From: Verrucomicrobiales bacterium
Lineage (GTDB): Bacteria > Verrucomicrobiota > Verrucomicrobiia > Verrucomicrobiales > DEV007
Reading direction: 5' to 3'
Assembly: GCA_965224535.1 (NCBI GenBank)
Contig: CBDCZR010000019.1
Coordinates: 271,527 to 335,526, forward strand
DNA length: 64,000 nt
In this document: one piece after another, positions 3,864 to 43,023 of the stretch
Numbering within the stretch: the stretch's first letter is position 1
Layout of the letters: the number at the start of each line of letters is the position of its first letter
Made by a program: the position numbers and the translations under genes
The notes under the pieces: model-generated
Database searches by the model: none
The model's input: only the letters and a program-made list of their open reading frames with translations
Told to the model about the DNA's origin: nothing

Positions 3864-3948
3864 GCGTCAATTGCGTCAATTGAGTGGGAAAGTGCGGAAA
3901 ATTCGCGTCCCCTTTGGACGTTCGCAACCCCTCAATTGCTTCATCTCC

Positions 3949-4302
3949 ATGACCGTTCAGCAACTCAACGACCAAGCTCCGTTCACCACCAAGGACGGCT
4001 CCACCATCCGCAGCATCCTGGATTCCACCAACGCGCCGGTTCGAAATCAGAGCCTGGCCGAGGCTAGCCTCCCGGCAGACTGCACGACGGATCGGCACTT
4101 TCACAAGCTCGCCGAGGAATTCTACTTTATCCTGGAAGGCGAGGGAACCATGGAAATCGACGGCGAAACGCGCCAGGTTCAAACCGGTGACGCCATTCTC
4201 ATCCCGGCAGGTTCATGGCACCAGATCCGCGCCGCCAAGAGCCTGCGTTTTCTCTGCTGTTGCGCCCCGCCTTACGCGCATGAGGACACTTACTTCGCGT
4301 AG
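3949..4302 (+). CDS. cupin-domain protein (cupin_2-like)
   Basis: Conserved cupin motifs HFHKLAEEFYFILEGEG...GDAILIPAGSWHQI. ATG at 3949 chosen; the longer ORF start at 3823 overlaps the convergent upstream gene. Confidence 0.7.
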   Translation: MTVQQLNDQAPFTTKDGSTIRSILDSTNAPVRNQSLAEASLPADCTTDRHFHKLAEEFYFILEGEGTMEIDGETRQVQTGDAILIPAGSWHQIRAAKSLRFLCCCAPPYAHEDTYFA

Positions 4303-16939: not shown

Positions 16940-18646
16940 ATGATGTCTGTTTTCCTGATCGTGTATCGTCATGCAAAGCCGATCCTTTGCCTGGCGGTTT
17001 TGTGGGCGTGTTTGGTCGCAGCCGACGCCAAGGACACGGAGCGGCGACCCAATATCGTTCTCATTTTGGCCGATGATTTGGGCTATTCCGACCTGGGTTG
17101 TTATGGCGGCGAAATTACCACGCCGAATTTGGATGCCTTGGCGGCAGGCGGATTGCGGATGACTCAGCTCTACAACACGGCTCGCTGTTGTTCCACCCGC
17201 GCTTCGCTTCTGACCGGATTGTATCCCCATCAAGCCGGCGTAGGCGCGATGACGGCGGATCTTGGTTTGCCCGGTTACCGCGGTTTCCTGACCGATCGAT
17301 CCGCCACCGTGGCCACTGTTTTGCGCGAAGCAGGCTACCAAACATTCCTCTCCGGTAAATGGCATCTGCGCGGAGCGGGCGATCCTGACTGCATTCCCAC
17401 CAACCGCGGGTTTGACCGGTTCTACGGTCACTTCAAGGCCTATGCCAGCTTCTATCGGCCAGACCTCTTCGTCCATTTACCAGCTCATAAGAATTCCGAG
17501 CCCAACGACCCGAATTTCTATGCAACCAACGCAATCACGGATCAAGCCCTCCGGTTCATCAACCAGGCCCGGCATGCTGATTCGAGTTCCCCCTACTTTC
17601 TCTATCTCGCCTACAACGCACCGCATTTTCCGTTGCACGCTCCCAAGGATTTGATCGATAAATGGGTGAAGCAATATGTAGACGGATGGGACGCGTTGCG
17701 TCTCGCCCGCCATCGTCGCATGATAGAAATGGGAATCGTCTCCCGACAGACAACACTTACCCCGCGCGGACATGTCACAGAAGTCCCCAATCGCAATCGC
17801 GATTCTCCTTATTACGGAAAGCAGATCCCGGCTTGGAACAGTCTACCGGAAGATCGCCGTCGTGATCTGGCCCGGCGCATGGCAACCTATGCAGCCATGG
17901 TGGAAATCATGGATCGCAATATAGGCCGAGTCGTGAATGATCTGCGTGAGAATGATGAGCTGGATAATACCTTAATCGTGTTTCTTTCCGACAACGGAGC
18001 ATGCGCGGAGTGGGATCCTTATGGCTTTGACAACAACCCCTATCCGACCAACAAACTCTATCGTGACGAGGAACTGGATGAGATCGGACAACCGGGCACC
18101 TTTCATAGTTACGGCACGGGTTGGGCCAATGCTTGCAACACGCCGTTTCGGCTCTACAAACACTACTGCCATGAAGGCGGTATTTCCGCTCCCTGCATTG
18201 TCCATTGGCCGGATCGAATCGAGCGGGCCGGAGAAATCGATCGTCAACCGGCTCACCTCGTGGATTTATCGGCCACACTACTGGATGCGGGCGGTGGAAC
18301 TTATCTTAACGCGCCGGATGTTCTTCCCGCGGCCGGCATCAGTTTGTTGCCGATTTGGGAGAGATCTGAGGTATTGCGGGAGCGCCCGCTCTATTTTGAA
18401 CACGAAGGAAATCGCGCCATTCGGTTGGGAAAATGGAAAGCTGTTTGGACAAATTTCAATCGGCGGTGGGAGCTCTACGACATCTTGAGCGATCGGACGG
18501 AACTCGATAATTTGGCGGATCAGAACGCGGAGAGAGTCGGGCAGCTCAGTAAAATGTGGGATGAGTGGGCAGCGGCATCGTTCGTGGAAAATCGAAAGAT
18601 CGAGCCTCCCGCCGAGGGTATGCCGAAGATCTACTACATGAAATGA
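16940..18646 (+). CDS. sulfatase-family (arylsulfatase-like) protein with signal peptide and a variant active-site motif C-C-S-T-R
   Basis: [34 protein letters not shown]...[17 protein letters not shown] aligns to the canonical sulfatase N-terminus. Ser replaces the usual Pro of C-x-P-x-R. Confidence 0.85.
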
Positions 18647-19914: not shown

Positions 19915-21219
19915 CTAGCTTAGCAACCCGCGCAGAATCTTGCCCTCTCGAAACAGCGTCATCGGCCGCCCGGAAGGCGTCGTCAGCTCTTGGCGGGGGT
20001 CGATTCCCAAGTCGTGGAAGATGGTGGCGCAAACATCGGCGGGCGTGCAGGGATCGTCGTCCGGCGCCATGCCGTCCTTGGTCGTGGAGCCGTAGGCAAA
20101 ACCGCGCTTGAAGCCGCCGCCGGCCATCAGCACGGCCATCGATTTGGCCCAGTGATCGCGGCCACCCTTGCCGTTGACCTTGGGTGTGCGGGCGAATTCA
20201 CCGGCGCAGTAAACGATCGTTTCGTCCAGCAACCCGCGATCCTCCAGATCGTCGATCAACACGGACAAGGTACGGTCCAACTCGGGAAGCCGCGATTCCT
20301 TCAGCTTCTTGAAGTTCTCGCCATGGGTATCCCAACCGCCCGTGCCGACGCTGACAAAACGCACCCCGGCCTCGATCAGGCGTCGCGCGGCTAATGCGCC
20401 TTGGCCGAAACTATCCTTGCCGTAGCGCTCCCGCAGCGCCTCGGGTTCTTTATTTAAGTCGAAGGCTTGGCGCGTTTTTGGGGATCGCAGCATATCAAAA
20501 GCCTGCTGCTGGAAGCGATCCAGGCTATCGACGATGGCGCCGGATTTTTCGAGCGCATTGAAGCGCGAATCGAACGTATCCAGCAACTCTGCGCGATTGG
20601 CTAATTGATCCAGGCTGAAGCCGGACGGCAAGGTCAGGCCGCGGACGCGCAAATCACCGCGCCGGCCGTCGCCTTCCACCTGAAACGGGTTATACGCCGG
20701 GCCTAAATATCCACCCATAGCCGCTCGGTCGCGTCCCCGGCCAAAGGTTACATACGGCGGCACGCCGGTTGGCGTAGATAGTAGCCGGGCCGTTAAGGAG
20801 CCCATGGATGGATAGTCCAGAGCGGGCGTAGGTTTGTGCCCCGTATGCATATAAACCGTGCCCGGCCCGTGGGAAGGAATGGTGTGACGCAGGGAGCGAA
20901 GGATCGCACAGTGCTTCATGACCTTGCTCAACTTGGGAAGGTGCTCGGAAATCCGGATTCCGTCCGCGCTGGTGGCGATTGGCTTGAATTCGCCGCGGAT
21001 TTTGGCGTCGGCCTCCGGTTTGAGGTCCCACATGTCGATCGTAGCCGGACCGCCTGCCAGCCAGATCATGATGACGTTCTTGGCGTTGGTGGATCCGGCC
21101 GAAGCGGCTTCGAGCCGAAGGATATCGCTCAGGCTCAGCCCCATAAGGCCGGCGGCGCCGATTTTCAAGAAATCGCGTCGCGCGTTTCCTTGGCAGTCTG
21201 TCCAGGTTTTGCGCTTCAT
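19915..21219 (-). CDS. DUF1501 domain protein (Tat signal)
   Basis: RRDFLKIGAAGLMGLSL leader; DMWDLKP, GTGGWDTHGENF, DHWA motifs; immediately downstream (15 bp) of the PSD gene. Confidence 0.85.
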   Translation of the reverse strand: MKRKTWTDCQGNARRDFLKIGAAGLMGLSLSDILRLEAASAGSTNAKNVIMIWLAGGPATIDMWDLKPEADAKIRGEFKPIATSADGIRISEHLPKLSKVMKHCAILRSLRHTIPSHGPGTVYMHTGHKPTPALDYPSMGSLTARLLSTPTGVPPYVTFGRGRDRAAMGGYLGPAYNPFQVEGDGRRGDLRVRGLTLPSGFSLDQLANRAELLDTFDSRFNALEKSGAIVDSLDRFQQQAFDMLRSPKTRQAFDLNKEPEALRERYGKDSFGQGALAARRLIEAGVRFVSVGTGGWDTHGENFKKLKESRLPELDRTLSVLIDDLEDRGLLDETIVYCAGEFARTPKVNGKGGRDHWAKSMAVLMAGGGFKRGFAYGSTTKDGMAPDDDPCTPADVCATIFHDLGIDPRQELTTPSGRPMTLFREGKILRGLLS

Positions 21220-21233
21220 TTGGCGTTGTAGAT

Positions 21234-24200
21234 TTAGTGATTGAGGATGAATTCGCGGGTGTTGATCAATGCCCAGAGCACGTCCACAAATCCGGCATCG
21301 CTGCCGTTTTGCTTCGTGATATTGGCGACGGCGGCCTGGCGCTCGTCAGGGCTGGGGAAACGTGTCAGGGTGGCCAGGAACAGTTCGTCGATGATTTTGC
21401 CTATTTCTCCTTCGCTCAGCTTTTTTTGCTTGAGCTTCTCCAGCCTCTTATCCTTGGCCAACTGCTCCTTGAGGCGTCCGTTGCGGATTTTATCATAAAT
21501 CCGCGAATCGGTCATGAGATAGAGAATTTGCGGTAAAGCCGGGTCGTCGCTGCGTTCGCAATCGCAAATGGCCGTGCGTGGCGGCCGGCCAAAAGCGTTA
21601 AAGACGTAAGCCAGGTTGCCATCCTGAATCTGGCTCCCGGCAACCTCGATGGCGCTGCTGCCTTTGGGCGCGTCGCGGGTAAAGTTGTCGCTGGTCCCCA
21701 GCGCGGAGTTAAGCGCATCAACAACGACCTCGGCCATCATTTTTCGGGGATATTTCCGCGCAAAGTTGATCTTATCTCCGGCATTGGTCTCATTCGGCAT
21801 GGAAGAGCGCTGATACGTCCGGGAACGTAGGATTTGCCGTTCCAGGTGTCGCATATCGTAGTCATGCTGGACGAAGTCATCCGCCAAGGCGGCGATCAGT
21901 GCTTCATTGGAAGGCGGGTTGGCCGCGGAAAAGTTATCGACCGGCTCTACGATGCCCACGCCCATATAATACGCCCAAACGCGGTTCACAAAGGCGCGCG
22001 CGAAGAAGGGATTGTCCTCACCGGTCATCCATTCCAGGAAAGCCGCGCGATAGTCTCCCTTCTCTTCCAGCGGCTCCGCGCCCAAGGGCGTGGGTGGAAG
22101 CGGCTGGTTGGTGGTGGGGTGTTTCATGAGGTTGGGCCGGTCTACGTCTACAAACACCTCGCGAAGCGTGGGGAGCTTTTTCTTGTTATCCTTGATCTTT
22201 TTGCGCCGGTTGTTTTCCGCGTCGATTTGTTTCCGCGCTTCCTTTGAGCGGTCGTTCTTCACCTGGCTGAAGATATTGGCATAAGCGCGGTAATCCGCCT
22301 GCGTCCAACGGTCGTAGGGATGCTTGTGACATTGCGCGCATTGCAGTTGCACGCCCAAAAATGCAGCCGCGGTTTGTTCGGCGAATTGTTCCCGGGAAGT
22401 ATTTTTGCGGGCCCAAAAAAGATCGAGTGTCTCGCGTTTGGCGTAGGCATTCGCGAAACCGGCTAACGCGCCTTCATCTTGCTTGCGAGCGAGTTGAATC
22501 CATTGCGCGGGGGCCTTGTCTTCGCGGCTGGTCGCCAAAATAACGCCGCGCACCATCTCATCGTAGGGCACGTTCTTCGCAATTCGCTGGCGAAACCAGT
22601 CGTGCCACATTTTGCTGCGTTTTTCACCGGGACGCTCCAGGTTGTTGGAATTATTCCCGGTAAAATCGCTAAATTTCGTGGCCCACAAGGCGGCGTGAAG
22701 CGGATGGCGCAGCATTTCGTCGATCGTCCTGGTTCGCTTCTTGGGGTCCTTATCCGCGAAAAACGCGCGCGCTTCTTCCGGGCTGGGCAGTCTTCCGATG
22801 GTGTCAATATAGAGCCGGCGGAGAAATTCGCCGTCAGTCGCAATTTCGGATGGCTCGACGTTCAATGCGTCCAGCTTCGCCAACACGGCGCGGTCGATAT
22901 ATTGAGCGTCGGGCAACTTGATGCTCGGATTCCAGAACCTTTTTTTAGCTTCCTCCAGGTAGCCGATCGATGTGGCCACCAACGCGCGCGAGGCGACGAC
23001 CTCGTCGCGATAAGATACAACAATCGCGGTGTCACCGGGATTTTTGGAACGCACTTTCCCCTCCGGCGTTACTTCTGCCACAAAGTCGTCTTCAATTTCG
23101 AACTTGCAAAACGGGGTGACGTCTTCAGTCGTTCCATCGGCAAAGGTGGCTTCCACTTTTAAACGGACGCTGTGCCCAGGGCGGCTAAAGCAATGCTGGG
23201 CCGGCGAGATTTCGATCTTGGCGACTCGCCCGTTGCCGCTACTATATTGGGCGCCGCCTTCAATCCAGTTTCGGATCACTTTATACTGCCAGGAACGGCG
23301 CGAAAAATGTTCGCCGCCCTTATGTTTGGCCTGGAGGGTTGGTTTGCGAAGCAGGGCGCTTTTTTCCGGCGAACCGGGGTCAGCAAACGGGCCGAAACTA
23401 TCATCGATGATCGCATAGTAGTCCGGCTCCGGCGAGTGTCCGAAGAGGCTTAGCGCCATATCGCTTTCGCCTTGCAACGAGCCGTGGCAGGAGCCGGTGT
23501 TGCAGCCTTGGCGGGTGAGGATGCCCATGACGTGGCGCTCGAAATCGACATCCGTCAGGGTGCGCCCGCCGGGAAGTTTCACGGCCGGCAGATTGACGCT
23601 CGGTTTCGCCTGCGTTTTGGCGACTAGGGAAGGAATGACGCCAGGATTCGGCCCCGCCTCCAGGTTTTGGCGAATTTCCGCTTCACTCAGAGCGCGGCTG
23701 TAAATGGCCACCAGGTGAAAATCGCCCAGCCACGTGCGGTCGTTGGTTAGCTCGTTGGCCAGGGCGAAACGGTAGCTTTGCTCCCAGTTGGCCGGGCTGC
23801 CGCCGATTTTTCGCCGGGCGGCTTGCTTACCATCCAGGTAAATCGTGGCGTTGCTGGCGCGATCCAGCGCATAAACCACGTGAGTCAGCACCGGCTTCAG
23901 CTGGCCGGAAGAAGTCTCCAGCGAGCGCATGCCGTTGCGATCCGTCGCTGTGGTGCGAAAGCGAACGTCGTAGCTGGCGCCCTCTTGCCCCAGGGTAAAA
24001 TTTCGCTGGCCGGAATCCTCCGACAAAGTCACGATCCGCGCTGGACCACGTTGCGAGTCCTGCGCCGGTGAAATCCAGGCTTCGAGGGTAAATTCGCCGC
24101 TCCGGCGGACGGCTTCGATCAATTTCGACGGCGGCTTGGCGGAAACCAGGATGGTGGGAGCTTTCACCCGCAAAACCCCGTTTTTCCGCTCGACCGCCGC

Positions 24201-24524
24201 GATGTTGCCGATCGTCAAATCCAGCGGTTCGCCAATTCCGGAGCGGTCGCGGACTTTCGGCCCCGTCGTCTCGTTGAAATCGTAGAAAACCTGGAGCCCG
24301 CGGGTGACGCGCGGCGATTCCACGGTTTTGGGAGGTTTGTCAGGCACATCCGGCTTAGCCGAGATGGAAACCCACATTGCCTGGACGCTGCCTGCCGCGA
24401 GTTTGGAAATTCGCGCGGCAAATCCGGCTTCTTCCAGCGGTTCCGGCCGTCCAATCCACCCCGCCAGAAAAATCGCAAGAATCAGCGAGATAACGATGTG
24501 GTGGCGGAGTTTCATGATTTTCAC
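21234..24524 (-). CDS. DUF1549/DUF1553 (PSCyt2/PSD1) protein with an N-terminal LamG-like domain
   Basis: 1096 aa. CAQCHKHPYDRWTQADY (DUF1549) and NRVWAYYMG...NPPSNEALI (DUF1553). The N-terminal ~300 aa contains a LamG-like segment (NATIYLDGKQAARRKIGGSPANWEQSYRFALANELTNDRTWLGDFHLVAIYSRAL). Confidence 0.85.
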   Translation of the reverse strand: MKIMKLRHHIVISLILAIFLAGWIGRPEPLEEAGFAARISKLAAGSVQAMWVSISAKPDVPDKPPKTVESPRVTRGLQVFYDFNETTGPKVRDRSGIGEPLDLTIGNIAAVERKNGVLRVKAPTILVSAKPPSKLIEAVRRSGEFTLEAWISPAQDSQRGPARIVTLSEDSGQRNFTLGQEGASYDVRFRTTATDRNGMRSLETSSGQLKPVLTHVVYALDRASNATIYLDGKQAARRKIGGSPANWEQSYRFALANELTNDRTWLGDFHLVAIYSRALSEAEIRQNLEAGPNPGVIPSLVAKTQAKPSVNLPAVKLPGGRTLTDVDFERHVMGILTRQGCNTGSCHGSLQGESDMALSLFGHSPEPDYYAIIDDSFGPFADPGSPEKSALLRKPTLQAKHKGGEHFSRRSWQYKVIRNWIEGGAQYSSGNGRVAKIEISPAQHCFSRPGHSVRLKVEATFADGTTEDVTPFCKFEIEDDFVAEVTPEGKVRSKNPGDTAIVVSYRDEVVASRALVATSIGYLEEAKKRFWNPSIKLPDAQYIDRAVLAKLDALNVEPSEIATDGEFLRRLYIDTIGRLPSPEEARAFFADKDPKKRTRTIDEMLRHPLHAALWATKFSDFTGNNSNNLERPGEKRSKMWHDWFRQRIAKNVPYDEMVRGVILATSREDKAPAQWIQLARKQDEGALAGFANAYAKRETLDLFWARKNTSREQFAEQTAAAFLGVQLQCAQCHKHPYDRWTQADYRAYANIFSQVKNDRSKEARKQIDAENNRRKKIKDNKKKLPTLREVFVDVDRPNLMKHPTTNQPLPPTPLGAEPLEEKGDYRAAFLEWMTGEDNPFFARAFVNRVWAYYMGVGIVEPVDNFSAANPPSNEALIAALADDFVQHDYDMRHLERQILRSRTYQRSSMPNETNAGDKINFARKYPRKMMAEVVVDALNSALGTSDNFTRDAPKGSSAIEVAGSQIQDGNLAYVFNAFGRPPRTAICDCERSDDPALPQILYLMTDSRIYDKIRNGRLKEQLAKDKRLEKLKQKKLSEGEIGKIIDELFLATLTRFPSPDERQAAVANITKQNGSDAGFVDVLWALINTREFILNH

Positions 24525-25173: not shown

Positions 25174-25863
25174 TTAGGGAAGCTTCGGCAGATCGCCTTC
25201 CACGGCGTCCACCTGCTGCCGGGTTGGCATCGGAGCATCGGCGTATTTTTCCCGCGCCCAGGCAATTTGTTCCGGCGTGATAGGGCCGCTCTTGTTGCCG
25301 AAATTCGACCGAATGTAGGTCAATACCGCTGCGATCTGTTCGTCGCTCAAAGTGGCGCTCCAACCGACCATGGCGCCAACGTGCCGCGTCATGTCCGGCA
25401 TCGCTCCTTTCAGCGCCAGATAGGCCAGCTTCTCCGTCGGACCGTTCACGAATTCCGATCCTGCAAGGACGGGCGCCATGGGCGGATTCATCTTCATGGG
25501 CGGCCCTTTTCCATCCTCCCCGTGGCAGGCAACGCAGTTGGCGAAGGTGGCTTTGCCCAGGGCGGCGAAATCTACGGACCCCGCTGGTGCTCTGTCTCCG
25601 GAAGCAGGGGTCTCGGGCGTGGAAGGCGCGTTTGGCGGGGTTCCCGCACCTGCCGGGGGAGTTTGTGGCGCAGATGGGGCAGTGGCAACCGCGGAACCGG
25701 ATTCCGAAGGCGCTTCGGTGAGCCTAGCGGTCTCAAACATCGCGCCGAGCAGTTTGAACCCAAAGATGCCCAGCAGGACGGTCAAAATAACCGCGGTGAC
25801 GCCGCTGCTTAAGGTGCCGAGGGTTCCGGCAAAGGATTTGGATGATGGTGAGTTTTGGGCCAT
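25174..25863 (-). CDS. membrane-anchored monohaem c-type cytochrome with a Pro/Ala-rich linker
   Basis: N-terminal TM helix; CVACH haem site; C-terminal GAMPDM...LSDEQIAAVLTYI typical of class I cytochromes c. Confidence 0.7.
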   Translation of the reverse strand: MAQNSPSSKSFAGTLGTLSSGVTAVILTVLLGIFGFKLLGAMFETARLTEAPSESGSAVATAPSAPQTPPAGAGTPPNAPSTPETPASGDRAPAGSVDFAALGKATFANCVACHGEDGKGPPMKMNPPMAPVLAGSEFVNGPTEKLAYLALKGAMPDMTRHVGAMVGWSATLSDEQIAAVLTYIRSNFGNKSGPITPEQIAWAREKYADAPMPTRQQVDAVEGDLPKLP

Positions 25864-25952: not shown

Positions 25953-28900
25953 CTATCCTTTGCCTTGTTGGATCTGTGTTTCCACAACGGGATCATCGCC
26001 GTTTGAAGGGACGATTTTGACCTCTACATCGACGGGAACCGAGCGAATTCCCCGAATGATCGCCTCCAACTGCTGCAACGTGGATTCGGCCAATTTTGGC
26101 TGCGAGGCGCCCTCCAGCGCCTCTCGAATGCGCTCCAAACCTTCGCCAAACACCGCCAATTGCCCCACCACACGGCTCACCGGGTCGTTTTCGCCGCCGC
26201 CGCCCATCAAGAGGTTTCGCTGGAATTTGGCCTTGATGTCCTCCCAGCGTTTGGCCTCCTGCGGGGTGAGAATTCCCTCCATTTCGCGAAATTTCAGCAG
26301 ATTGGCTTCCGCGCCGGTGGTTAGGTTTTGCGCTTCGTTTTCGTAGTGATCCATGATGAGCGCTTCCACCTCTTTTTCCGTCATTAGTGCTAAAACGCGC
26401 TCGGCGATCCGGTTCATGTTGCGATAAGATCCCTGGAGCCTGAATGCCGGCTCCGTCCGATATTCGTCCTGCTGCGCGGCGCTGGCGATATATTGCTGGT
26501 TGACTCGCAAAATCGTGTCGCGAACGCGAAAAAGCTTGCGGGTGACGTCGACCAATTCGTCGATCTCCTCAACGGCGTAGTTGCCTTGAAAATCGATCCC
26601 TTCCTGCGTGCCGGTTTCCGCGATTTTCATCACGGCGTAGACATCTTGCTGGCTGCGCGCGGCCAGCTTGGATAAAACGGCGTTGTATGTTAGCGCGTTT
26701 TCAATATAGGAGGCCTTGAAGGCGGATCCGTGCCCGCCAATGATGTCACCCAGGTTGTAGGTATCCGCCCGGTTGGCAAGCATGTCGGGAATTTGGAATT
26801 TTCCGCCGCTTTCCGTGTAGGGGTTGCCCGCCATGACCACGGCCACTTTTTTGCCGCGCAAATCATAGGTTTTCGCCTCGCCCTTCCACACGCCTTCCAT
26901 TTTGCGCTGGGCGTCGCACAAGCTGATGAATTTTTGCAAAAACTCCGGATGACAGTGTTGGATGTCGTCCAGATAGATCATGATATTGTCGCCCATTTCC
27001 AGCGCCAGGTTTAGTTTGTCCACTTCTTCCCGCGCACTGGCGTTCGGCGCTTCGTTAGGATCTAACGAAGTTACGTTGTGCCCGATTGCCGGTCCGTTGA
27101 CCTTGATGAAAGTGATCCCAAGGCGATTGGCGATATATTCCATCAACGTTGTTTTTCCGTAGCCCGGTGGAGATATCAACAAAAGCAGCCCCATGCGGTC
27201 GGTGCGCGAGTCTTCCCCGGCGGTACCCAGTTGCTTGGCCAGATTTGCGCCGGCAAGCGGCAGATACACCTGGTCGATCAAGCGATTTCGCACAAAGGCG
27301 GACATCACCCGCGGCTTGAATTCTTGCAACCGCATTGTTTCGCGCGTTTTTTCGACCAACTGCGTTTTCAGCCTTGAGTAGGATCGGAATTTGGGCACGA
27401 TTTCGCGATCGAACCGGCGCAGTTTGTCGATAAACCGATTGAAGTGAAACGCATAGGTTCCCCCATTGCCAATCGCCGGGTGCGATCCGGAAAATCCGCT
27501 CAGCTTTGCGGCGAGATTCGTCTTGACGACGTCTTTCTTGCGGAAACCGCCTCGCAAGAGATGAACCGCCGCTTCTTCGGCAAAATCGGCCTCAATTTCG
27601 GGTTCATGACCGGTTGCCAAAAATCCGCGCACCCAGTCAAGGATAACGGCATAGCGCGCTCTCGGGTTAGCCTTCAGCGGCGCCTGAGCCTCCTGAAACG
27701 TCTTCTCCGCCTGCTTGCCTGCGATGGCGGTTTTAAAGTGTGTAACCAGGTCGCTCGCCTCCCGCGAGACGGTGAATTCCTTGGGCGTGCTGAGTTCGTG
27801 AAACAAGTATTCCGCCGCCTCTTCCACAAGCAATGAATCGCCCGAAAGGCCGCTGTCTCGAATGCCGCGCACCAGATCGCCAACATGATCGGCAGGCGCC
27901 GTTCCATTGGCGCCGAACGTGTTTTGCATGTCGCCAAATGCGAGCAATTTTGCCTCCGAAAGCGCCTTGGCGTCGCCATCGCTCCAACACTCCCAAAATA
28001 GCAGGCCCAATGCCCGCGCTTTGGAGTTGTAGCGCAACAAACCGACTTTTTCGCGCAAGGTAAGCAGCTTTTTGATGAGTTTCAGCGCGTCGCGGTCGTG
28101 CACGCCCTTGGTGTATCCTTCATCGTACCTGGTGGCCGCGAACCGTTGTACGTCTTCCAATGTGGCTGCTCCAGCGGGATGGGTTTGGATGTATTGATAA
28201 GCCAGGTATTCGGCCCGATAGACCTCGCCATTTTCGGATAATACCGATTGATCCCAAATGTCCGAGGTTTCCAGGAATTCCTCTTCCTCAATCGCCTCAA
28301 AAAAGCCCGTTCCCGTGAGATGAAGACACATTTGCTCGTCATGCGGAACCACTGTTAGCTCCAACTCCTGGTTGTTCACGGAAAACTTGTGCTCGCCAAA
28401 CTGGATGACGTTTTTGCCGTCCACGTACAACTCCTTGCGATCTTTTAGCTGCCTGACGCTTTCTTCTCGTAGCGAGTTTAGCTGTGTTTGCAGGTCGCCG
28501 GCTTTCACGGTGTCTCCCAACACTTTTAGGTCTGCGATCACGTTGCGGATCTTCTCCACCATCAAATCGCCGGCCAAATATCCGTTGATTTCATTGATCG
28601 ACTCAAATTGTTCGACCCGATGGCGAATACCGGTCAAAATTCGTTCGCCGGACTTCATCAACGTCCCCGCGCGCCGATTTCGCGCCTCTGTCAGGCTCAA
28701 TTTGCGCGATTCGAAGGCATTGTAGATCTCATCCCGCTTTTCTCCGATCTGCTCGACGTATTCGTCAAATTCGCTAATCTCGCCTTCCAACTCTTCGAGT
28801 TGGATCATCGCTTTCGTCAAAAATTCTTCGCATTTTTCAGGCGTAGAACAAAGATCGAGATAATTGACGACAGCCTGGTTCAGCAGCTTCAGTTTCGCTC

Positions 28901-30965
28901 CAAACTGTGCGGCGCCTTCTTCCCGCGATAGCTCAAGGTTTCGTGCTTTTAGTGTGGCTTTGACCTGATTCAGTTGCGCGTAAATCGTGGAGATTTGATC
29001 GACGATTTGCGTAGTTTGCGTGGCATCCTCGATCTTGAGATTTCCGACGATATCGATCAACATTTCCAACTCGCCGGCAGCCTCGTTTAGGCCCGTTTCG
29101 ATCTCCTCAGCCTCAACCACCTTTTTAATCTTCGCGATTGCGGCTTCGCGGTCAGCGACGCGCTTGCGATAGGGCTCGAGAGCAGCATCGGTTTGCAGGA
29201 AATCCACGCATTTTCGTGAGATCGCCTCCGACGCTTCTGCAACGTCGGCCTCCATGGCGCCGACACGGTCCAAGTTCACGTAGCGGATGTCCCGCAGCGA
29301 GATCAATTCCCCGCGCAATTCGCGCAAATCCCCTAAAATGTGAACGAATCCCAGGATATCGTCCGGCATCATGTGCTTAGCCTTGCCAACAATCTCGGTT
29401 GTGCGTTTGGAGAGCCTTCCCGTCTCCTCGCCGGCTGTTTTGCGCAAGCGCACCACCTTTTCAAACTCGGAGATCGCCGCTTCAGCCGCGGATTTAACAT
29501 CCATCAGCGGAACCTTCAGTTGATGGGTTTCCGGCCGGCCGATCCAAAAGTAGCTATCGCAAATATCCCCGGATCGCTTCGCCAAATCGAGATACAACCC
29601 CTCAAACGAGTCGTCTTTGGCCAAGAGCGTTAGAATCTCCTGACATTCCGCCATGCACCGTACCAAATCCGCGTTGCCGATTTTGTAGAGATAAGTGCCG
29701 GTTTTCTCTTTATTTGCGATGCTGCCTGCATCGCTAACATACGGTGTCTGCCATACCTGGAGAACGTGATGTTTTTGCGGATTGCTTTCCGCCTTGAAAT
29801 AGACCAGCTCACCGTTGGAAAATATCGTGAAACCGTGGCAAACAATCGGGGTTTCGACGTTTTGGGTGATGATGTTGTAGGATAGCAGCGTGTATTGCCC
29901 CGAACGCCGGTTGTAGAAGACAAAAAGGTGGTCTTCGCCGTTGGGAGACGCAATCCGGCGCTCGAAGAGCATATTCTCCAGATCGCTGTCAAAAACCTTG
30001 ACCTCGCCAATCTGCAACAGGTAACCGTTGGCGAAAATCAGGCCATGATCGTCCGGCAGCAACACGCAAGAGTCCCGAATCCCCGGGACGGAATAGACCT
30101 TGCGGATCTTCTCGTTGTAGACCAGGTAGCGGTAGTCTTTTTCCTGATAGGGCAGGATTTTTAGCAGAATCAGGCTACCCACGCACGCGTAGAAGATTTC
30201 GGCGTCGTCCAGGGTTTGATCGGCGGCCGCAACAGCCTCGGCGTAGATTCCTTCGCCCGTGTCGGTATTGTCCTCAATTTTGATGGTCAGGTCTCCCCCA
30301 ACCGTTTCCACAAATATCCGGTCTTCGATGGAAATATGGGGATGTTCTCCGTAGCGGTGAAGGTCCCGGTGGGCGCGTTTCCACACAAACTCCTGCTGGG
30401 GCGGGAAAACGTACTCATGGTCGAATCGGTTGCCCAGATAGTGCAATTCGCCGTCGGCTAGAGCCCACTTGAACACCTTGACGTCCGCCACTTCTCGTCC
30501 CACGCGAAAGGCCATGAAAAGATGCGGGCCTGCGATCATAAACTTTGCGAAAACAGCCTGCCGATAATATTTGTAGAGGTAGGCGAAATCGCGCTCGAAT
30601 TGTTCGTCGCGAATCAAATCCAGGCCAACCTGATGGAAGCTATGATCCGCTGCCTCATAGCGATAAACCGCGAAGACGTCTGAGAGTTCTGTCTGCAATT
30701 TCAGCCCCAAATGTACGTTGTAACCAAACAAGAACAGGTTTCCGCCGCAGGCCACCATATCACGCGGAACACAATTATGTTGCGTGGTGATCCGCTCCGT
30801 GCCAACCAGGCTTGCCTCAATAGCGCCAAATACTTCCTGCCGGTCCGCGTTCAGGCTGGCAAGCCGCTTCCGAAGCTGCGCGCCGTGAGTTTCGAGGCGC
30901 CCACGAATTATTTCGTAGGCGCCCCCTTCAAGCGCAGCAGGTTTTTCTGCGTTTTCCTCTGCCAT
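25953..30965 (-). CDS. giant (1670 aa) protein with a MoxR/AAA_5-like AAA+ ATPase core; flotillin-operon partner
   Basis: Walker A LLISPPGYGKTT, Walker B IMIYLDDIQH, and a MoxR-like sensor segment VAVVMAGNPYTESGGKFQIPDMLANRADTYNL near residues 1240-1400. The ~1200-aa N-terminal part has no recognised motif and includes a coiled-coil-like E/K/L-rich segment. Starts 9 bp after the flotillin stop. Confidence 0.8.
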   Translation of the reverse strand: MAEENAEKPAALEGGAYEIIRGRLETHGAQLRKRLASLNADRQEVFGAIEASLVGTERITTQHNCVPRDMVACGGNLFLFGYNVHLGLKLQTELSDVFAVYRYEAADHSFHQVGLDLIRDEQFERDFAYLYKYYRQAVFAKFMIAGPHLFMAFRVGREVADVKVFKWALADGELHYLGNRFDHEYVFPPQQEFVWKRAHRDLHRYGEHPHISIEDRIFVETVGGDLTIKIEDNTDTGEGIYAEAVAAADQTLDDAEIFYACVGSLILLKILPYQEKDYRYLVYNEKIRKVYSVPGIRDSCVLLPDDHGLIFANGYLLQIGEVKVFDSDLENMLFERRIASPNGEDHLFVFYNRRSGQYTLLSYNIITQNVETPIVCHGFTIFSNGELVYFKAESNPQKHHVLQVWQTPYVSDAGSIANKEKTGTYLYKIGNADLVRCMAECQEILTLLAKDDSFEGLYLDLAKRSGDICDSYFWIGRPETHQLKVPLMDVKSAAEAAISEFEKVVRLRKTAGEETGRLSKRTTEIVGKAKHMMPDDILGFVHILGDLRELRGELISLRDIRYVNLDRVGAMEADVAEASEAISRKCVDFLQTDAALEPYRKRVADREAAIAKIKKVVEAEEIETGLNEAAGELEMLIDIVGNLKIEDATQTTQIVDQISTIYAQLNQVKATLKARNLELSREEGAAQFGAKLKLLNQAVVNYLDLCSTPEKCEEFLTKAMIQLEELEGEISEFDEYVEQIGEKRDEIYNAFESRKLSLTEARNRRAGTLMKSGERILTGIRHRVEQFESINEINGYLAGDLMVEKIRNVIADLKVLGDTVKAGDLQTQLNSLREESVRQLKDRKELYVDGKNVIQFGEHKFSVNNQELELTVVPHDEQMCLHLTGTGFFEAIEEEEFLETSDIWDQSVLSENGEVYRAEYLAYQYIQTHPAGAATLEDVQRFAATRYDEGYTKGVHDRDALKLIKKLLTLREKVGLLRYNSKARALGLLFWECWSDGDAKALSEAKLLAFGDMQNTFGANGTAPADHVGDLVRGIRDSGLSGDSLLVEEAAEYLFHELSTPKEFTVSREASDLVTHFKTAIAGKQAEKTFQEAQAPLKANPRARYAVILDWVRGFLATGHEPEIEADFAEEAAVHLLRGGFRKKDVVKTNLAAKLSGFSGSHPAIGNGGTYAFHFNRFIDKLRRFDREIVPKFRSYSRLKTQLVEKTRETMRLQEFKPRVMSAFVRNRLIDQVYLPLAGANLAKQLGTAGEDSRTDRMGLLLLISPPGYGKTTLMEYIANRLGITFIKVNGPAIGHNVTSLDPNEAPNASAREEVDKLNLALEMGDNIMIYLDDIQHCHPEFLQKFISLCDAQRKMEGVWKGEAKTYDLRGKKVAVVMAGNPYTESGGKFQIPDMLANRADTYNLGDIIGGHGSAFKASYIENALTYNAVLSKLAARSQQDVYAVMKIAETGTQEGIDFQGNYAVEEIDELVDVTRKLFRVRDTILRVNQQYIASAAQQDEYRTEPAFRLQGSYRNMNRIAERVLALMTEKEVEALIMDHYENEAQNLTTGAEANLLKFREMEGILTPQEAKRWEDIKAKFQRNLLMGGGGENDPVSRVVGQLAVFGEGLERIREALEGASQPKLAESTLQQLEAIIRGIRSVPVDVEVKIVPSNGDDPVVETQIQQGKG

Positions 30966-30974
30966 GACGTTGTG

Positions 30975-33026
30975 TTAGCTGGTTAAGCGGCGAATCACTT
31001 TTTCCGCCTTTTCATCGGCCAGGCCAAAGCGTTCGGCGGCGCCCAACAGCATCTGGAGCTTGTTTCGGGTCCCGTTGTCATCGTTCGAAGCCGCCACCAT
31101 TTGGCTCAAAACCGCGGAGATGGTTAGATTTTTGAGATCCTCGCTGGAGAACCCGAATTGCTCCACCCAGTTGCGCATTTGCGCCTTAAAATAGTCGGGA
31201 TCAGAGCTAAAAAAGGTCTCTTTTACGTCGGTTAGTGCGGCGCTGTTGTTCACCAGGCGATCGACAGCTTTGCCGTTCATGATCGACTTGGTGATTTTAT
31301 CGAAAAACTCCGTTTCACCGCCCACAATGTCAATACGAGCGCTCTTCAGCGCTTCGCCGACGATCATTGCTTGTTCGGCGGCGACATCGCGGCGGATGTT
31401 GATCTCGGCAAGCTCGATTTCCTTTTGTTTTTCCAGTTCGAGCTTGAATTCTTCGTGCTCGCGCCCCACCTCGTCGAAGAGCTTCATCGCTTCGGCTTTT
31501 TCGTTAATGCTATTGGCCTCAGCTTCGCCTTGAGCGCGAATCACATCAGCTTCCCCAAGCCCTTCGGCAGCCGATTCGGCGGCAATGGCCTCGGCAAGCA
31601 TCTTTTTCGCTGTTGCCTCTTTTTCCGCGGCGGTTTGTTGGGCTTCGGCTTCAATCACAACTTCCTCAGCGTGCAATTCCGCAGCGGTTTTGCCGGCCTC
31701 GGCGTCTTTCACGCGGACGTATAAGTCCTGATCGGCCTCCAACTTTGCGGCCTCCTGTTTCGCCTCGGCTTCCTTGATCGTTTTGACCAATTCTTCTTGA
31801 GCTTCCTTTTCCGCCTGGGTAATGGCGACTTGTTTTTCCCGTTCGGCAGTGGCGTGTGCCTCGGTATCCAGGACGCGTTGTTGTTCTTCAACAACTGTCT
31901 TCTCCAAGGCCACGCGTTCTTTTATTACTTGCTGGATGTCGCGCTTTTCGCCTTCCACCGCTTTATCACGCTCGATCGCCTTCAACTGCGTGACTCGCTC
32001 GCGGTCGATTACTTCCATTTCGCGGTCCCGCTCGACGCGTTCCAGTTCCACCGCGTCGGTCCGCTCCTTGTTGCGTTGCGCGACCAGAACGGTGCGCTCT
32101 TTGTTCTCTTGCGCGACGTGTGCTTCTTCTTCAGCGGCGATCCGGGCCTGTTCTTCGCGTAGCCATTGCTCGTGTTTGACTTGTTCGGATTCCGCTTTCT
32201 CGCGCGCTTGCACCACGGCAATTTCCCGCCCTTGCTTGGCCTCGGTTTCGGCCAACTGACGTTCGAGTTCCAAAATCGCCTCGCGCGCCTCCACGTCTTG
32301 TTGTTTGATAACGCGTTCCTCATCCCGGCGAGCGAAGTTGGCGCCTTTTTTCTCCTGCGCGGTTTGTTCGGTGATTTTTCGGATGCCTTCGGAATCCAAG
32401 ACGTTGTCCGGATCCAGGTCCTCGATCGGCGTTTGTTCCAAATGGTCGATTGCCGCGTCATCAAGGACAAAACCGTTCAGATCGGTGCCAATGACCTTGA
32501 GAATCTCGCTGCGGAAGGTATCGCGCTCTTGATACAAATCGACGAAGTTAAACTGCTTGCCGACAGTTTTAAGCGCTTCGGAAAATTTGGCGTCAAAAAG
32601 CGCCCGAATCTCTGCTTCGCTCGAAGCGCGGTCGCAGCCGATGGATTGCGCGACTTTCAGGACGTCTTCCTTGGCGTTGTTGACGCGAACGAAGAATTTC
32701 ACCTTGATGTCTGCGCGGATGTTATCCTTACAAATGAGGCCGTGACCGTGTTTGCCGGAGCGATCGATTTCCACGCTTTTTAACGATATATCGATCGATT
32801 CCGCCCGGTGAACGACCGGCACAACAAAAATGCCGTCAAAGGCGATTTCCGTGCCGCCCATTCCGGTCCGAACAAGCGCCGTGCCTTTCTTAACCTTGCG
32901 GTAAAGCGTGGCGTAGAGGATGCCGGCGGCTAGAACAAAGAACAGGATAGCTCCAAGAACGGCAGCGATCATTGTTCCGACAAATCCCAGCATGGGCTGG
33001 ATTTCCACAAGTGCGTATATTGGCAT
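30975..33026 (-). CDS. flotillin / SPFH (band 7) family protein (YqiK-like) with a long E/A/K/R-rich coiled coil
   Basis: N-terminal TM helix plus SPFH region (GTALVRTGMGGTEIAFDGIFVVPVVHRAESIDISLKSVEIDR...); ~350 aa of EAxxK heptads; flotillin C-terminal region. Confidence 0.85.
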   Translation of the reverse strand: MPIYALVEIQPMLGFVGTMIAAVLGAILFFVLAAGILYATLYRKVKKGTALVRTGMGGTEIAFDGIFVVPVVHRAESIDISLKSVEIDRSGKHGHGLICKDNIRADIKVKFFVRVNNAKEDVLKVAQSIGCDRASSEAEIRALFDAKFSEALKTVGKQFNFVDLYQERDTFRSEILKVIGTDLNGFVLDDAAIDHLEQTPIEDLDPDNVLDSEGIRKITEQTAQEKKGANFARRDEERVIKQQDVEAREAILELERQLAETEAKQGREIAVVQAREKAESEQVKHEQWLREEQARIAAEEEAHVAQENKERTVLVAQRNKERTDAVELERVERDREMEVIDRERVTQLKAIERDKAVEGEKRDIQQVIKERVALEKTVVEEQQRVLDTEAHATAEREKQVAITQAEKEAQEELVKTIKEAEAKQEAAKLEADQDLYVRVKDAEAGKTAAELHAEEVVIEAEAQQTAAEKEATAKKMLAEAIAAESAAEGLGEADVIRAQGEAEANSINEKAEAMKLFDEVGREHEEFKLELEKQKEIELAEINIRRDVAAEQAMIVGEALKSARIDIVGGETEFFDKITKSIMNGKAVDRLVNNSAALTDVKETFFSSDPDYFKAQMRNWVEQFGFSSEDLKNLTISAVLSQMVAASNDDNGTRNKLQMLLGAAERFGLADEKAEKVIRRLTS

Positions 33027-33038
33027 TTTCTATTTGGG

Positions 33039-33722
33039 TTACGATGTTATTTCCGATTCTGGCTTCAGGGACCGGACGGTGTACCAATCCGAGTTTTCCT
33101 CCTTCGCCACGACTAAAATGGATGTGCCCTTGGGCAGGCTTTTGCCTTCGACAGATAGACGCGCGTTTAAAAGCAAGGGTGCGCCTTCTGCCTCTACTTC
33201 CACCTGGCCGAACTCGTGATCCAAATTTGGCGAACGCACAAATCCGGAGCGTCCAATGACCGGTTCCTGCTTTTCCGCGGATTTGATCATTCTTCCGAAA
33301 GGTTTCAGCGGTATGGTGAGCCACTTTGCGGATAACACGCCCACGATTATAGCGCCAAACGCGACCGCGGCAGCTATCATTCCATCATGGGAGGGGTTCA
33401 GATAGTGATTGCCCAAAAGGTTGGCGGCCCAGGTAAACAAGGTAAGTAGCGATAACACCAAAATGATGGGCACGTCAGACGCGTTCATGAAATTCATCAT
33501 CGATTGAATGATGCCCGGTCCGCCGGTTTCTCCGTCATTGCTATCGGCGCCCTCTACGCTGGCGTCACCATCTATTTCGGTATCGACTTGCAACAGACCA
33601 TCCAGCATCTCAAAGTCCAGTGCGCCCAACATAGCGATGAGCCAATATAAAATGACACAACCCAGGAGAATGGTAAACGGCATGTTATGCGGTAGAATGG
33701 CTTCTTGAAGAAATTCTCTCAT
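33039..33722 (-). CDS. NfeD/YqiJ-like membrane protein (TM helices plus C-terminal OB-fold-like beta domain)
   Basis: Hydrophobic helices (ILLGCVILYWLIAMLGAL, IILVLSLLTLFTWAANLL, AAVAFGAIIVGVL) followed by a beta-rich C-terminus VEVEAEGAPLLLNARLSVEGKSLPKGTSILVVAKEENSDWYTVRSL. Sits 12 bp upstream of the flotillin gene, as in the E. coli yqiJ-yqiK arrangement. Confidence 0.65.
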   Translation of the reverse strand: MREFLQEAILPHNMPFTILLGCVILYWLIAMLGALDFEMLDGLLQVDTEIDGDASVEGADSNDGETGGPGIIQSMMNFMNASDVPIILVLSLLTLFTWAANLLGNHYLNPSHDGMIAAAVAFGAIIVGVLSAKWLTIPLKPFGRMIKSAEKQEPVIGRSGFVRSPNLDHEFGQVEVEAEGAPLLLNARLSVEGKSLPKGTSILVVAKEENSDWYTVRSLKPESEITS

Positions 33723-33868
33723 GGTGTGATTAGGAAGAATGGATTTTTGGGATTCCAGCGGCGCTATTCTGCTACACTTTTGACGGCTATGCCAATTATA
33801 ATTGATTTACTCTATTGTAACTAGCTTTCTTTGTTCGTGAGCGCACTGGCAAATCACGATTGGAGTAA

Positions 33869-35959
<2,091 letters not shown>

Positions 35960-39941: not shown

Positions 39942-40056
39942 TCGGCAAAAAGGGACAAAAGGGACCTAAAGGACTGAAGGGACGTCGCTTGCGTCCCTTT
40001 CAATCCGTTGGGTGAAAAGGCGCCTTCCCGCCGCTCGTGTTCTAAAAAAGCAAGCC

Positions 40057-41466
40057 ATGCACCCCGAATCCGCCCAACCGCCCAGCCGCCGCCGCCTGCT
40101 CCAAACCAGCGCGGTGGGTTTTGGGCATCTGGCGTTTTCTGCGATGCTCGGCGGGGAATCTTCGGCAGCCAACCCGCTTGCGGCGCGCAAACCACACGTG
40201 CCGGCGCGGGCTAAGCGCGTGGTGTTCCTGTTCATGAAGGGCGGGCCGTCGCACGTGGATACCTTTGATCCTAAGCCGCTGCTGGATCGCGACCACGGCA
40301 AGCCCCTGCCCTTTGATCTGCCGCGAGTCACCTTCGCCAAGCAGGGCAATTTGCTCAAATCTCCGTGGCGATTCCGACGTTACGGACAGAGCGGGTTGCC
40401 GGTTAGCGAGCTTTTCCCGAACGTGGCCCAGCTCATCGACGAACTTTGCGTTCTGCGCTCGGTTCATGGCACCAACCCGGCCCACGGCGGAGCTTTGCTG
40501 AAACTCCACACCGGCAGCGACACTTTTGTCCGCCCCAGCCTCGGTTCGTGGGTGATTTACGGGCTGGGCACGGAAAACGAGAATTTGCCCGCGTTTGTGA
40601 CGATTTGCCCCACTTTGGCGCACGGCGGGGTCAACAATTGGGGCGCGGCGTTTTTGCCGTCGCACTGTCAGGGCACGCCAATCGGCAACGCCAGCCTTAA
40701 GGCGTCGCAAGCGGTGGTGAAGCACATCCGCAACGAGCGAATTTCGCCGGAATTGCAGCGCAAGCAGTTGGATTTGATCGCAGCGATGAATCGCGATCAC
40801 CTGCGAGCCGTGGGGAGAAATCAGGCGCTGGAGGGACGGCTCAACTCCTTCGAGCTGGCCTTCCGGATGCAGGCGGAAATGCCGGTGGTGCAAGATTTGA
40901 GCGGCGAAACGCCGGTTACGCGCAAACTCTACGGGATCGACGATCCGCTGACCGAGGATTTCGGGCGGCAATGCCTCATGGCGCGGCGATTTCTGGAACG
41001 CGGCGTCCGATTCGTCCAAGTGACGCACAGCGACAGCGAGGTGCAGTGGGATCAGCACAGCAACCTCTACCAGGGTCACACGAAAAACGCGGCAGAGGTG
41101 GACAAGCCGATCGCGGGGTTTTTGCGCGATTTAAAGGCGCGCGGCATGCTGGAGGACACCCTCGTCATCTGGGGCGGCGAATTTGGCCGCACGCCCACCG
41201 CGCAGGGAACCAACGGCCGCGATCACAACCCTCACGGCTTCACCATGTGGATGGCCGGTGCCGGCGTAAAGCCCGGCTTCGCCTACGGCGCCACCGACGA
41301 TTACGGCTACTACGCCGAACGCGACAAAATGCACGTGCACGATTTGCACGCGACCATCCTCCACATCCTGGGCCTCAACCACGAAAAACTGACGTTTCGC
41401 TACGCGGGCCGGGATTTTCGGCTAACCGACGTGGAAGGACACGTGGCCCGCGAAATTTTGGCCTAG
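40057..41466 (+). CDS. DUF1501 domain protein (Tat signal)
   Basis: SRRRLLQTSAVGFGHLAF leader; DTFDPKP, HSDSEVQWDQHSN, DHNPHGF motifs; no adjacent DUF1553 partner. Confidence 0.85.
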   Translation: MHPESAQPPSRRRLLQTSAVGFGHLAFSAMLGGESSAANPLAARKPHVPARAKRVVFLFMKGGPSHVDTFDPKPLLDRDHGKPLPFDLPRVTFAKQGNLLKSPWRFRRYGQSGLPVSELFPNVAQLIDELCVLRSVHGTNPAHGGALLKLHTGSDTFVRPSLGSWVIYGLGTENENLPAFVTICPTLAHGGVNNWGAAFLPSHCQGTPIGNASLKASQAVVKHIRNERISPELQRKQLDLIAAMNRDHLRAVGRNQALEGRLNSFELAFRMQAEMPVVQDLSGETPVTRKLYGIDDPLTEDFGRQCLMARRFLERGVRFVQVTHSDSEVQWDQHSNLYQGHTKNAAEVDKPIAGFLRDLKARGMLEDTLVIWGGEFGRTPTAQGTNGRDHNPHGFTMWMAGAGVKPGFAYGATDDYGYYAERDKMHVHDLHATILHILGLNHEKLTFRYAGRDFRLTDVEGHVAREILA

Positions 41467-42947: not shown

Positions 42948-43023
42948 GGTGACCGTAGCTCAGCGGTAGAGCCCCTGATTGTGGTTCAGGATGTCGCGGG
43001 TTCGAATCCCGTCGGTCACCCCA
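42948..43023 (+). tRNA. tRNA-His (anticodon GTG) with encoded G-1 and 3' CCA
   Basis: Manual fold: G-1, acceptor GTGACCG/CGGTCAC, D-arm GCTC-AGCGGTA-GAGC, anticodon loop TTGTGGT (GTG), T-arm GCGGG-TTCGAAT-CCCGT, discriminator C then CCA. G-1 with C73 is diagnostic of tRNA-His. Confidence 0.85.

Follow-up and report, generated by a model that had tools for sequence, protein, structure and literature searches.

The closest described relative of the genes reported here is an operon class in which a CesT/Tir-PspA dyad is joined to a band-7/flotillin protein, a YqiJ/YuaF protein with three transmembrane (TM) segments and a novel AAA+ ATPase (Ravi et al., mSystems 2024, PMC11237479; bioRxiv 2020.09.24.301986). 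Widely distributed 'abbreviated' operons without CesT/Tir-PspA were reported as well, and the operon context was read as sub-membrane dynamics with PspA (PMC11237479). We analysed a stretch of 64,000 nucleotides from a Verrucomicrobiales bacterium (contig CBDCZR010000019.1), called the window below, in which three consecutive minus-strand genes encode a YqiJ/DUF1449-family membrane protein (gene 1), a flotillin-type SPFH protein (gene 2) and a giant DUF3686-DUF7902-AAA+ protein (gene 3). This trio is the same in kind as the published operon. Since no PspA or CesT/Tir gene lies within the 64 kb, it corresponds to the abbreviated form, without the dyad that precedes the full CesT/Tir-PspA-band-7-AAA+ arrangement. 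The locus is a further orthologue of the published class, from a Verrucomicrobiales-like genome. A sequence-only reading of this DNA had presented it as an undescribed flotillin-associated ATPase; the trio had in fact been described already, while the central idea of a flotillin-linked ATPase machine was right.

The first two genes are homologous to E. coli YqiJ-YqiK, S. oneidensis SO1376-SO1377 and B. subtilis YuaF-FloT, which are found in the same order and with the same tight spacing (PMC2636767). Unlike in the window, yqiK of E. coli K-12 has no ATPase gene after it, and SO1377 is followed by a terminator, with no ATPase gene (PMC1468410). To describe genes 1 and 2 as the SPFH-NfeD pair typified by yqiJ-yqiK is thus correct for homology, order and spacing, but the flotillin is not an orthologue of YqiK or FloT. 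The ATPase goes unmentioned in papers on P. aeruginosa SPFH proteins, on SPFH evolution (2009, PMC2636767) and on SO1377 (PMC1468410), and its description by Ravi et al. is purely computational, takes one paragraph and does not name DUF3686 (PMC11237479). Because the association is published and the locus is one more orthologue, the value of the window locus in itself is limited. New in our analysis are a quantified synteny, a C-terminal domain specific to a flotillin subgroup and an invariant Asp-Asp Walker B motif.

Organization and conservation of the trio

Gene 1 (33039-33722, 227 amino acids (aa)), gene 2 (30975-33026, 683 aa) and gene 3 (25953-30965, 1670 aa) are listed among the open reading frames (ORFs) of the minus strand, each with an ATG start. 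Gaps of 12 bp (33027-33038) and 9 bp (30966-30974) separate them, in agreement with the spacing noted earlier, and the two junctions read TAA-cccaaatagaaa-ATG and TAA-cacaacgtc-ATG. Neither junction has a promoter-like or terminator-like site in a scan of the operon region, a scan that is uninformative in that it shows no excess over shuffled sequence (4 versus 4.4 promoters, 10 versus 14.8 terminators). Given the tight spacing and the lack of such sites at the junctions, the natural reading is that the three genes form one transcription unit, possibly translationally coupled. 'Co-translation', the term used in the sequence-only reading, is too strong for what the spacing conveys, which is compatibility with one transcript and with possible coupling. 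The presumed site of the operon promoter is the 218-bp intergenic region (33723-33940, no strand assigned) that separates gene 1 from the divergent ligA gene; the sole weak sigma-70-like match there (minus strand, 33795-33766) is no better than chance.

The genes are real, as the giant protein has full-length homologues: 120 are listed at 56-80% identity with E = 0, among which 118 cover 98-100% of the query and two cover 87%. When its N-terminal residues 1-1200 were used as query against representative clusters (50% identity), 443 clusters were retrieved at E <= 1e-30. They include full-length proteins of 1590-1930 aa down to 28% identity, and homologues in the range of 28-52% identity align over residues 1-1200. 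A pattern scan with one genome per species gave at least 584 loci encoding the ATPase. All neighbourhood counts below refer to the best 80 of these at least 584 loci, from Verrucomicrobiota, Planctomycetota, Bacteroidota, Desulfobacterota and Clostridia.

Of the 62 loci that could be assessed for linkage to a flotillin gene, i.e. those with at least 3.2 kb of upstream sequence, 60 have such a gene upstream in the same orientation, and 54 of 61 have a YqiJ-like gene. Loss of synteny in other genomes, which would have spoken against the flotillin-ATPase association, is clearly not seen. PspA (19/61) and CesT/Tir (17/61) are found exclusively in Bacteroidota, where the pair precedes the trio. Unbiased clustering of neighbouring ORFs recovered the same partners, namely SPFH (69 loci), YqiJ (55), PspA (19) and CesT/Tir (17), together with a helix-turn-helix (HTH) regulator (17), and no other recurrent partner.

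The arrangement extends well beyond the immediate relatives of the window. In the closest of these (L090), the gaps within the trio are 11 and 10 bp. The trio also occurs on a Hymenobacter plasmid (Bacteroidota). A plasmid collection adds four more phyla, with the trio on plasmids of Streptomyces and Deinococcus, on Pseudomonas pQBR103 and in a record of Proteus mirabilis. Among four homologues with as little as 28-29% identity, three have a small ORF and a Band_7 gene directly upstream, and for the fourth the contig ends within an unannotated upstream ORF; in the locus of one of them (L091), PspA is encoded immediately downstream. The trio is conserved across at least eight bacterial phyla.

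Several variations accompany this common core. In a number of Bacteroidota loci, two or three small ORFs for predicted lipoproteins or TM proteins are inserted between the flotillin and ATPase genes (L028 6992-8158, L033 7609-8695, L052 8063-8967, L062 6844-8744). The HTH regulator is of the XRE type (about 250 aa, HTH_3 E 3.2e-11) and is encoded divergently upstream of the CesT/Tir-PspA-YqiJ-flotillin-ATPase cluster, at 3302-4063 (-) in L036 and in 16 other Bacteroidota loci. The Hymenobacter copy carries the NCBI name 'LexA family transcriptional regulator', and the one copy scanned for a peptidase S24 domain has none. On pQBR103 (L006 1-6857), the trio comes directly after genes for PspA, a rhomboid protease, DUF2491, DUF350 and DUF1190 proteins and a glutathionylspermidine-synthase-like protein. 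This upstream block represents another operon type found in Ravi et al. (PMC11237479), the YjfJ-type polyamine-linked PspA operon, so that two PspA-associated modules are joined on this plasmid.

Features of the three proteins

Gene 3 encodes a soluble protein, without TM segment, that belongs by its sequence to the DUF3686-DUF7902-AAA+ family (NCBI 'DNA repair ATPase'). Its N-terminal 1200 residues, in which no motif had been recognized by eye, contain two Pfam domains. DUF3686 (PF12458; residues 31-473, 29547-30875 (-)) is matched over profile positions 2-448 of 448 with E 2.9e-183 and 609.9 bits, and is predicted to be beta-propeller-like. DUF7902 (PF25472; residues 595-676, 28938-29183 (-), E 3.5e-28) falls within a helical/coiled-coil region of about residues 480-1000, consistent with a model of the N-terminal part in which long helices are predicted from residue 478 on. 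Residues 681-1230 match no Pfam family, and the searches revealed neither a protease domain nor any nuclease, toxin or similar effector domain in the protein.

The AAA+ core occupies residues 1261-1384 (26814-27185 (-)), where the Pfam models AAA and AAA_5 both score above their cutoffs, and the conserved module, a divergent one among AAA+ proteins, continues to about residue 1560. The AAA identity proposed from the motifs alone thus holds in profile searches, and translation places both motifs where they had been located. Walker A, SPPGYGKTT (residues 1265-1273, 27147-27173 (-)), does not vary among 20 diverse homologues that share 30-52% identity with the window protein. Walker B, IMIYLDDIQH (residues 1328-1337, 26955-26984 (-)), is an Asp-Asp variant. 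Its residues D1333, D1334, I1335, Q1336 and H1337 are also invariant in these homologues, so the canonical catalytic Glu of the hhhhDE motif appears to be replaced family-wide, giving hhhhDD. A sensor-1 Asn and three Arg are invariant in the same set and, with its catalytic residues intact, the ATPase looks active.

A structure model of residues 1180-1670 (predicted local distance difference test score (pLDDT) 63.1) displays an AAA+ core with a hairpin ahead of sensor 1. Foldseek ranks RuvB, HslU, NorQ and CbbQ at the top for this model, and the MoxR-type CbbQ and NorQ would be the nearest solved structures. Sequence similarity to PDB entries is confined to the P-loop stretch, where RuvB comes first both by sequence and by Foldseek. 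The relation to MoxR proteins has nonetheless clear bounds. Members of that family (CbbQ, NorQ, RavA) are of about 300 aa and work with VWA partners, whereas the module described here is the C-terminal quarter of 1670 aa, gives no match to the MoxR-specific AAA_3 model (PF07726), carries the DD Walker B and has no linked VWA gene, none being found in the window neighbourhood or among the recurrent neighbours of the 80 loci.

The gene 2 protein has a single N-terminal TM segment (about residues 19-37) followed by the SPFH/Band 7 domain (residues 44-211, PF01145, 32394-32897 (-)). The full-length protein has no Pfam or PDB match even at E = 10 (hmmscan, phmmer), a failure that we attribute to the Glu/Ala-rich coiled coil, because the N-terminal 237 aa scanned alone match Band_7 with 42.1 bits and E 1.3e-10 (cutoff 23.6). 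Precomputed Pfam annotation of orthologues is likewise empty, and automated annotation is likely to overlook such flotillins often. The coiled coil (about residues 230-520, 31467-32339 (-)) aligns with that of YqiK and contains 21% Glu and 18% Ala, which bears out its earlier description as very long and EA-rich. BLASTP aligns the window flotillin with E. coli YqiK over 417 aa at 30% identity (E 2e-44).

The relationship to YqiK ends before the C-terminus. The C-terminal domain (about residues 521-683, 30978-31466 (-)) is common to ATPase-linked flotillins. With residues 501-683 as query, counterparts of 35-63% identity were found in operon-linked SPFH genes of other phyla, and this domain of about 165 aa is present in every ATPase-linked flotillin that we examined. 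For the C-terminal 183 aa, neither a significant match to YqiK (E > 2.8) nor a Pfam match was obtained, and the NCBIfam FloT model gives the gene 2 protein 19.2 bits against a cutoff of 700. Within the set compared, made up of the window and loci L005, L006, L088 and L089, the SPFH N-domains are 50-57% identical across phyla and 33% identical to that of E. coli YqiK. On these grounds gene 2 is assigned, from its sequence, to a separate subgroup of flotillin-like SPFH proteins, distinct from YqiK and FloT and with a C-terminal domain of its own. A homologue search with this domain returned almost only short fragments at contig ends.

Gene 1 lies directly upstream of the SPFH gene, as expected for a YqiJ/DUF1449 partner. 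Its product has three hydrophobic segments predicted to be TM (about residues 17-35, 86-104 and 114-132) and scores slightly below the cutoff of 23 for Pfam YqiJ_N (PF21001; 21.0 bits, E 3.9e-4). This model reaches E <= 1e-3 in 10 of the 33 aligned members, E. coli YqiJ being one of the 33. A profile built from 32 operon-linked orthologues aligns with E. coli YqiJ over 184 columns, i.e. nearly full length, up to residue 202 of 209 (hhalign probability 96.8%, E 2.5e-10), and the Hymenobacter orthologue, named 'DUF1449 family protein' by NCBI, is 30% identical to the window protein (E 1.7e-21). These comparisons place the gene 1 product in the YqiJ family (NfeD-like). Its C-terminal region is predicted to form a beta-rich domain, for which the OB fold is putative: the C-terminal 103 aa of the window protein match neither YqiJ_OB nor NfeD models of Pfam, and YqiJ_OB is recognized in one of the 33 aligned members.

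Possible function and competing readings

In bacteria, flotillins as well as PspA/ESCRT-III-like proteins build large assemblies that are bound to membranes. We lean towards the view that the three gene products work together as a single unit on the cytoplasmic side of the inner membrane. This unit would probably serve as an envelope- or membrane-stress module, with the ATPase remodelling flotillin, PspA or their clients. Gene order, domain content and conservation are observed here; a physical interaction among the products, the substrate and the stress trigger are our inference. Judging from the homologous SPFH-NfeD complexes QmcA-YbbJ and HflK/C, the three-TM YqiJ-like protein and the flotillin would co-assemble into a membrane-anchored oligomeric ring or cage. 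The soluble giant protein would then be recruited to this scaffold, as suggested by the conserved gene linkage and the co-inherited domains, plausibly by means of its N-terminal beta-propeller and its coiled coil, for which the C-terminal domain of the flotillin is a candidate docking site. Finally, the AAA+ fold and the invariant catalytic residues suggest that the giant protein could oligomerize via its AAA+ module and, driven by ATP, bring about assembly, disassembly or remodelling of the flotillin scaffold. Where the operon includes CesT/Tir-PspA, it may act on ESCRT-III-like PspA polymers, or on clients bound by these, and not on the scaffold.

A narrower proposal, which we put forward tentatively and consider rather doubtful, casts the giant DUF3686 protein as the hitherto missing energy source of membrane-scaffold dynamics in bacteria: a dedicated AAA+ remodeller that docks by its beta-propeller on a special class of flotillin cage and disassembles or reshapes flotillin and/or PspA polymers, as a counterpart of Vps4. 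The family-wide Asp-Asp Walker B would in that case point to a slow, switch-like ATPase and not to a processive motor. ESCRT-III/Vps4 and PspA-PspF likewise couple a polymer of the ESCRT-III superfamily genomically to an AAA+ ATPase, and PspA is encoded in or beside the trio operon in the 19 of 61 loci mentioned above, on pQBR103 and in L091. The homology of the window ATPase to Vps4 or PspF nevertheless goes no further than the AAA+ fold, and its action on PspA is a proposal.

The proposal bears on a recognized gap. According to a 2025 review, bacterial PspA has no known Vps4-like ATPase, a Vps4 counterpart appears absent in bacteria, and what Band-7 partners do is yet to be established (PMC7619361). 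Nearly always encoded directly after a dedicated flotillin/YqiJ pair, the ATPase is an obvious candidate for an ATP-driven regulator of flotillin/PspA assemblies and, if this is true, its class could supply the regulator that is missing. Proteus mirabilis, Pseudomonas fluorescens SBW25 (pQBR103), Streptomyces and Flavobacteriia offer tractable carriers.

Several observations weigh against the membrane-stress module that we favour. The ATPase has no adjacent flotillin gene in about 5 of the 80 loci (L021, L026, L027, L046 and L080), so the partnership is not obligatory in cis. A tblastn search of the whole 64-kb window found no PspA or CesT/Tir homologue. The two structure models reach only moderate confidence (pLDDT about 63), a Walker B with Asp-Asp in place of Asp-Glu need not support robust hydrolysis, and docking via the flotillin C-terminal domain is conjecture on our part. 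We also found no experimental work on any member of the ATPase family in the literature.

The alternative that survives best, although we regard it as unlikely, is client-directed quality control: the flotillin/YqiJ cage would merely position the ATPase, which would unfold or extract membrane-associated clients and leave scaffold and PspA alone. Analogues exist, as HflK/C cages the AAA+ protease FtsH, and S. aureus FloA-NfeD reportedly has a holdase role. HflK/C-FtsH resembles the trio in combining an SPFH membrane scaffold with a ring AAA+ ATPase (PMC13086221). Yet FtsH is a membrane-anchored protease of the classical clade without propeller or coiled-coil fusion, while the window ATPase is soluble, has no protease domain and appears structurally nearest to the MoxR type. 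Against client-directed action, the neighbourhood contains no conserved gene for a protease or other effector, and ATPases of the MoxR/AAA_5 type, which give the best structural matches, are mostly complex-maturation factors and not threading unfoldases. The present data do not separate client-directed action from the scaffold- or PspA-remodelling module.

Less probable still, with odds that we would put as distinctly poor, is an anti-phage or abortive-infection module in which flotillin/YqiJ senses or executes membrane perturbation and the large NTPase acts as the switch, a role that had also been suggested earlier. Many defence systems combine a large NTPase with a repeat-domain sensor. The patchy distribution across at least eight phyla, the copies on large plasmids or megaplasmids of Hymenobacter, Streptomyces and Deinococcus and on pQBR103, and the base composition of the operon would all suit such a module: the third-position GC (GC3) of the operon is 0.59-0.65 (GC 0.51-0.54), compared with 0.68-0.79 for most neighbouring genes and 0.60 for one nearby sulfatase gene. 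This low GC is partly explained by a composition rich in Glu, Lys and Ala, and may also hint at horizontal acquisition. Against defence, PADLOC-DB v2 gave the ATPase nothing other than short coiled-coil and P-loop noise (LmuB 6.6e-5, IetA 4e-4) and gave the flotillin and YqiJ-like proteins no match at all. The coiled-coil-type matches of gene 3 to LmuB and Ppl are weak and far under thresholds, with 18.7 bits for NCBIfam Ppl, whose cutoff is 1000. Effector domains such as nucleases or toxins were not detected, the neighbours of the trio in the window are housekeeping and PVC-typical genes, and the sole recurrent partners that we noted are the envelope-stress proteins PspA and CesT/Tir. None of 50,697 phage records contains a homologue of the ATPase, which is neutral for a host defence gene; the suggested defence role receives no positive support from PADLOC or from the phage collection.

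That the giant protein is a DNA-repair ATPase is very improbable, since the names ('ATPase involved in DNA repair' in Pfam, which models the N-terminal domains, and 'DNA repair ATPase' at NCBI), the divergent ligA of the window and the top rank of RuvB for the P-loop region are countered by the absence of ligA adjacency from the closest relative (L090) and from all 80 related loci. No DNA-repair gene is a conserved neighbour in these loci or in the closest relative, and the name has no contextual support; the position of ligA is a coincidence that could wrongly reinforce it. An identity of the SMC/SbcC/RecN type was rejected as well, the ATPase being a contiguous C-terminal AAA+ module and not an ABC-type split head flanking a coiled coil.

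Genomic surroundings in the window

The divergent neighbour ligA (33941-35959 (+)) encodes an NAD-dependent DNA ligase. On the other side, 89 bp downstream of the operon and on the same strand, lies a cytochrome c gene (25174-25863 (-), 229 aa). It is retained in the closest relative (L090 11100-11774) and is not a recurrent neighbour in the other loci, so this adjacency is probably local synteny only. Rfam and tRNA scans identified a single RNA gene in the 64 kb, a tRNA-His (GTG) at 42949-43023 (+), and the Rfam scan found no regulatory RNA near the operon. The window also contains gene pairs of PSCyt2/PSD1 (DUF1549/DUF1553) and DUF1501 proteins and a sulfatase gene (19915-24524 (-), 40012-41466 (+) and 16940-18646 (+)). 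Such genes are typical of Planctomycetota and Verrucomicrobiota, in agreement with the best homologues, which come from Verrucomicrobiales.

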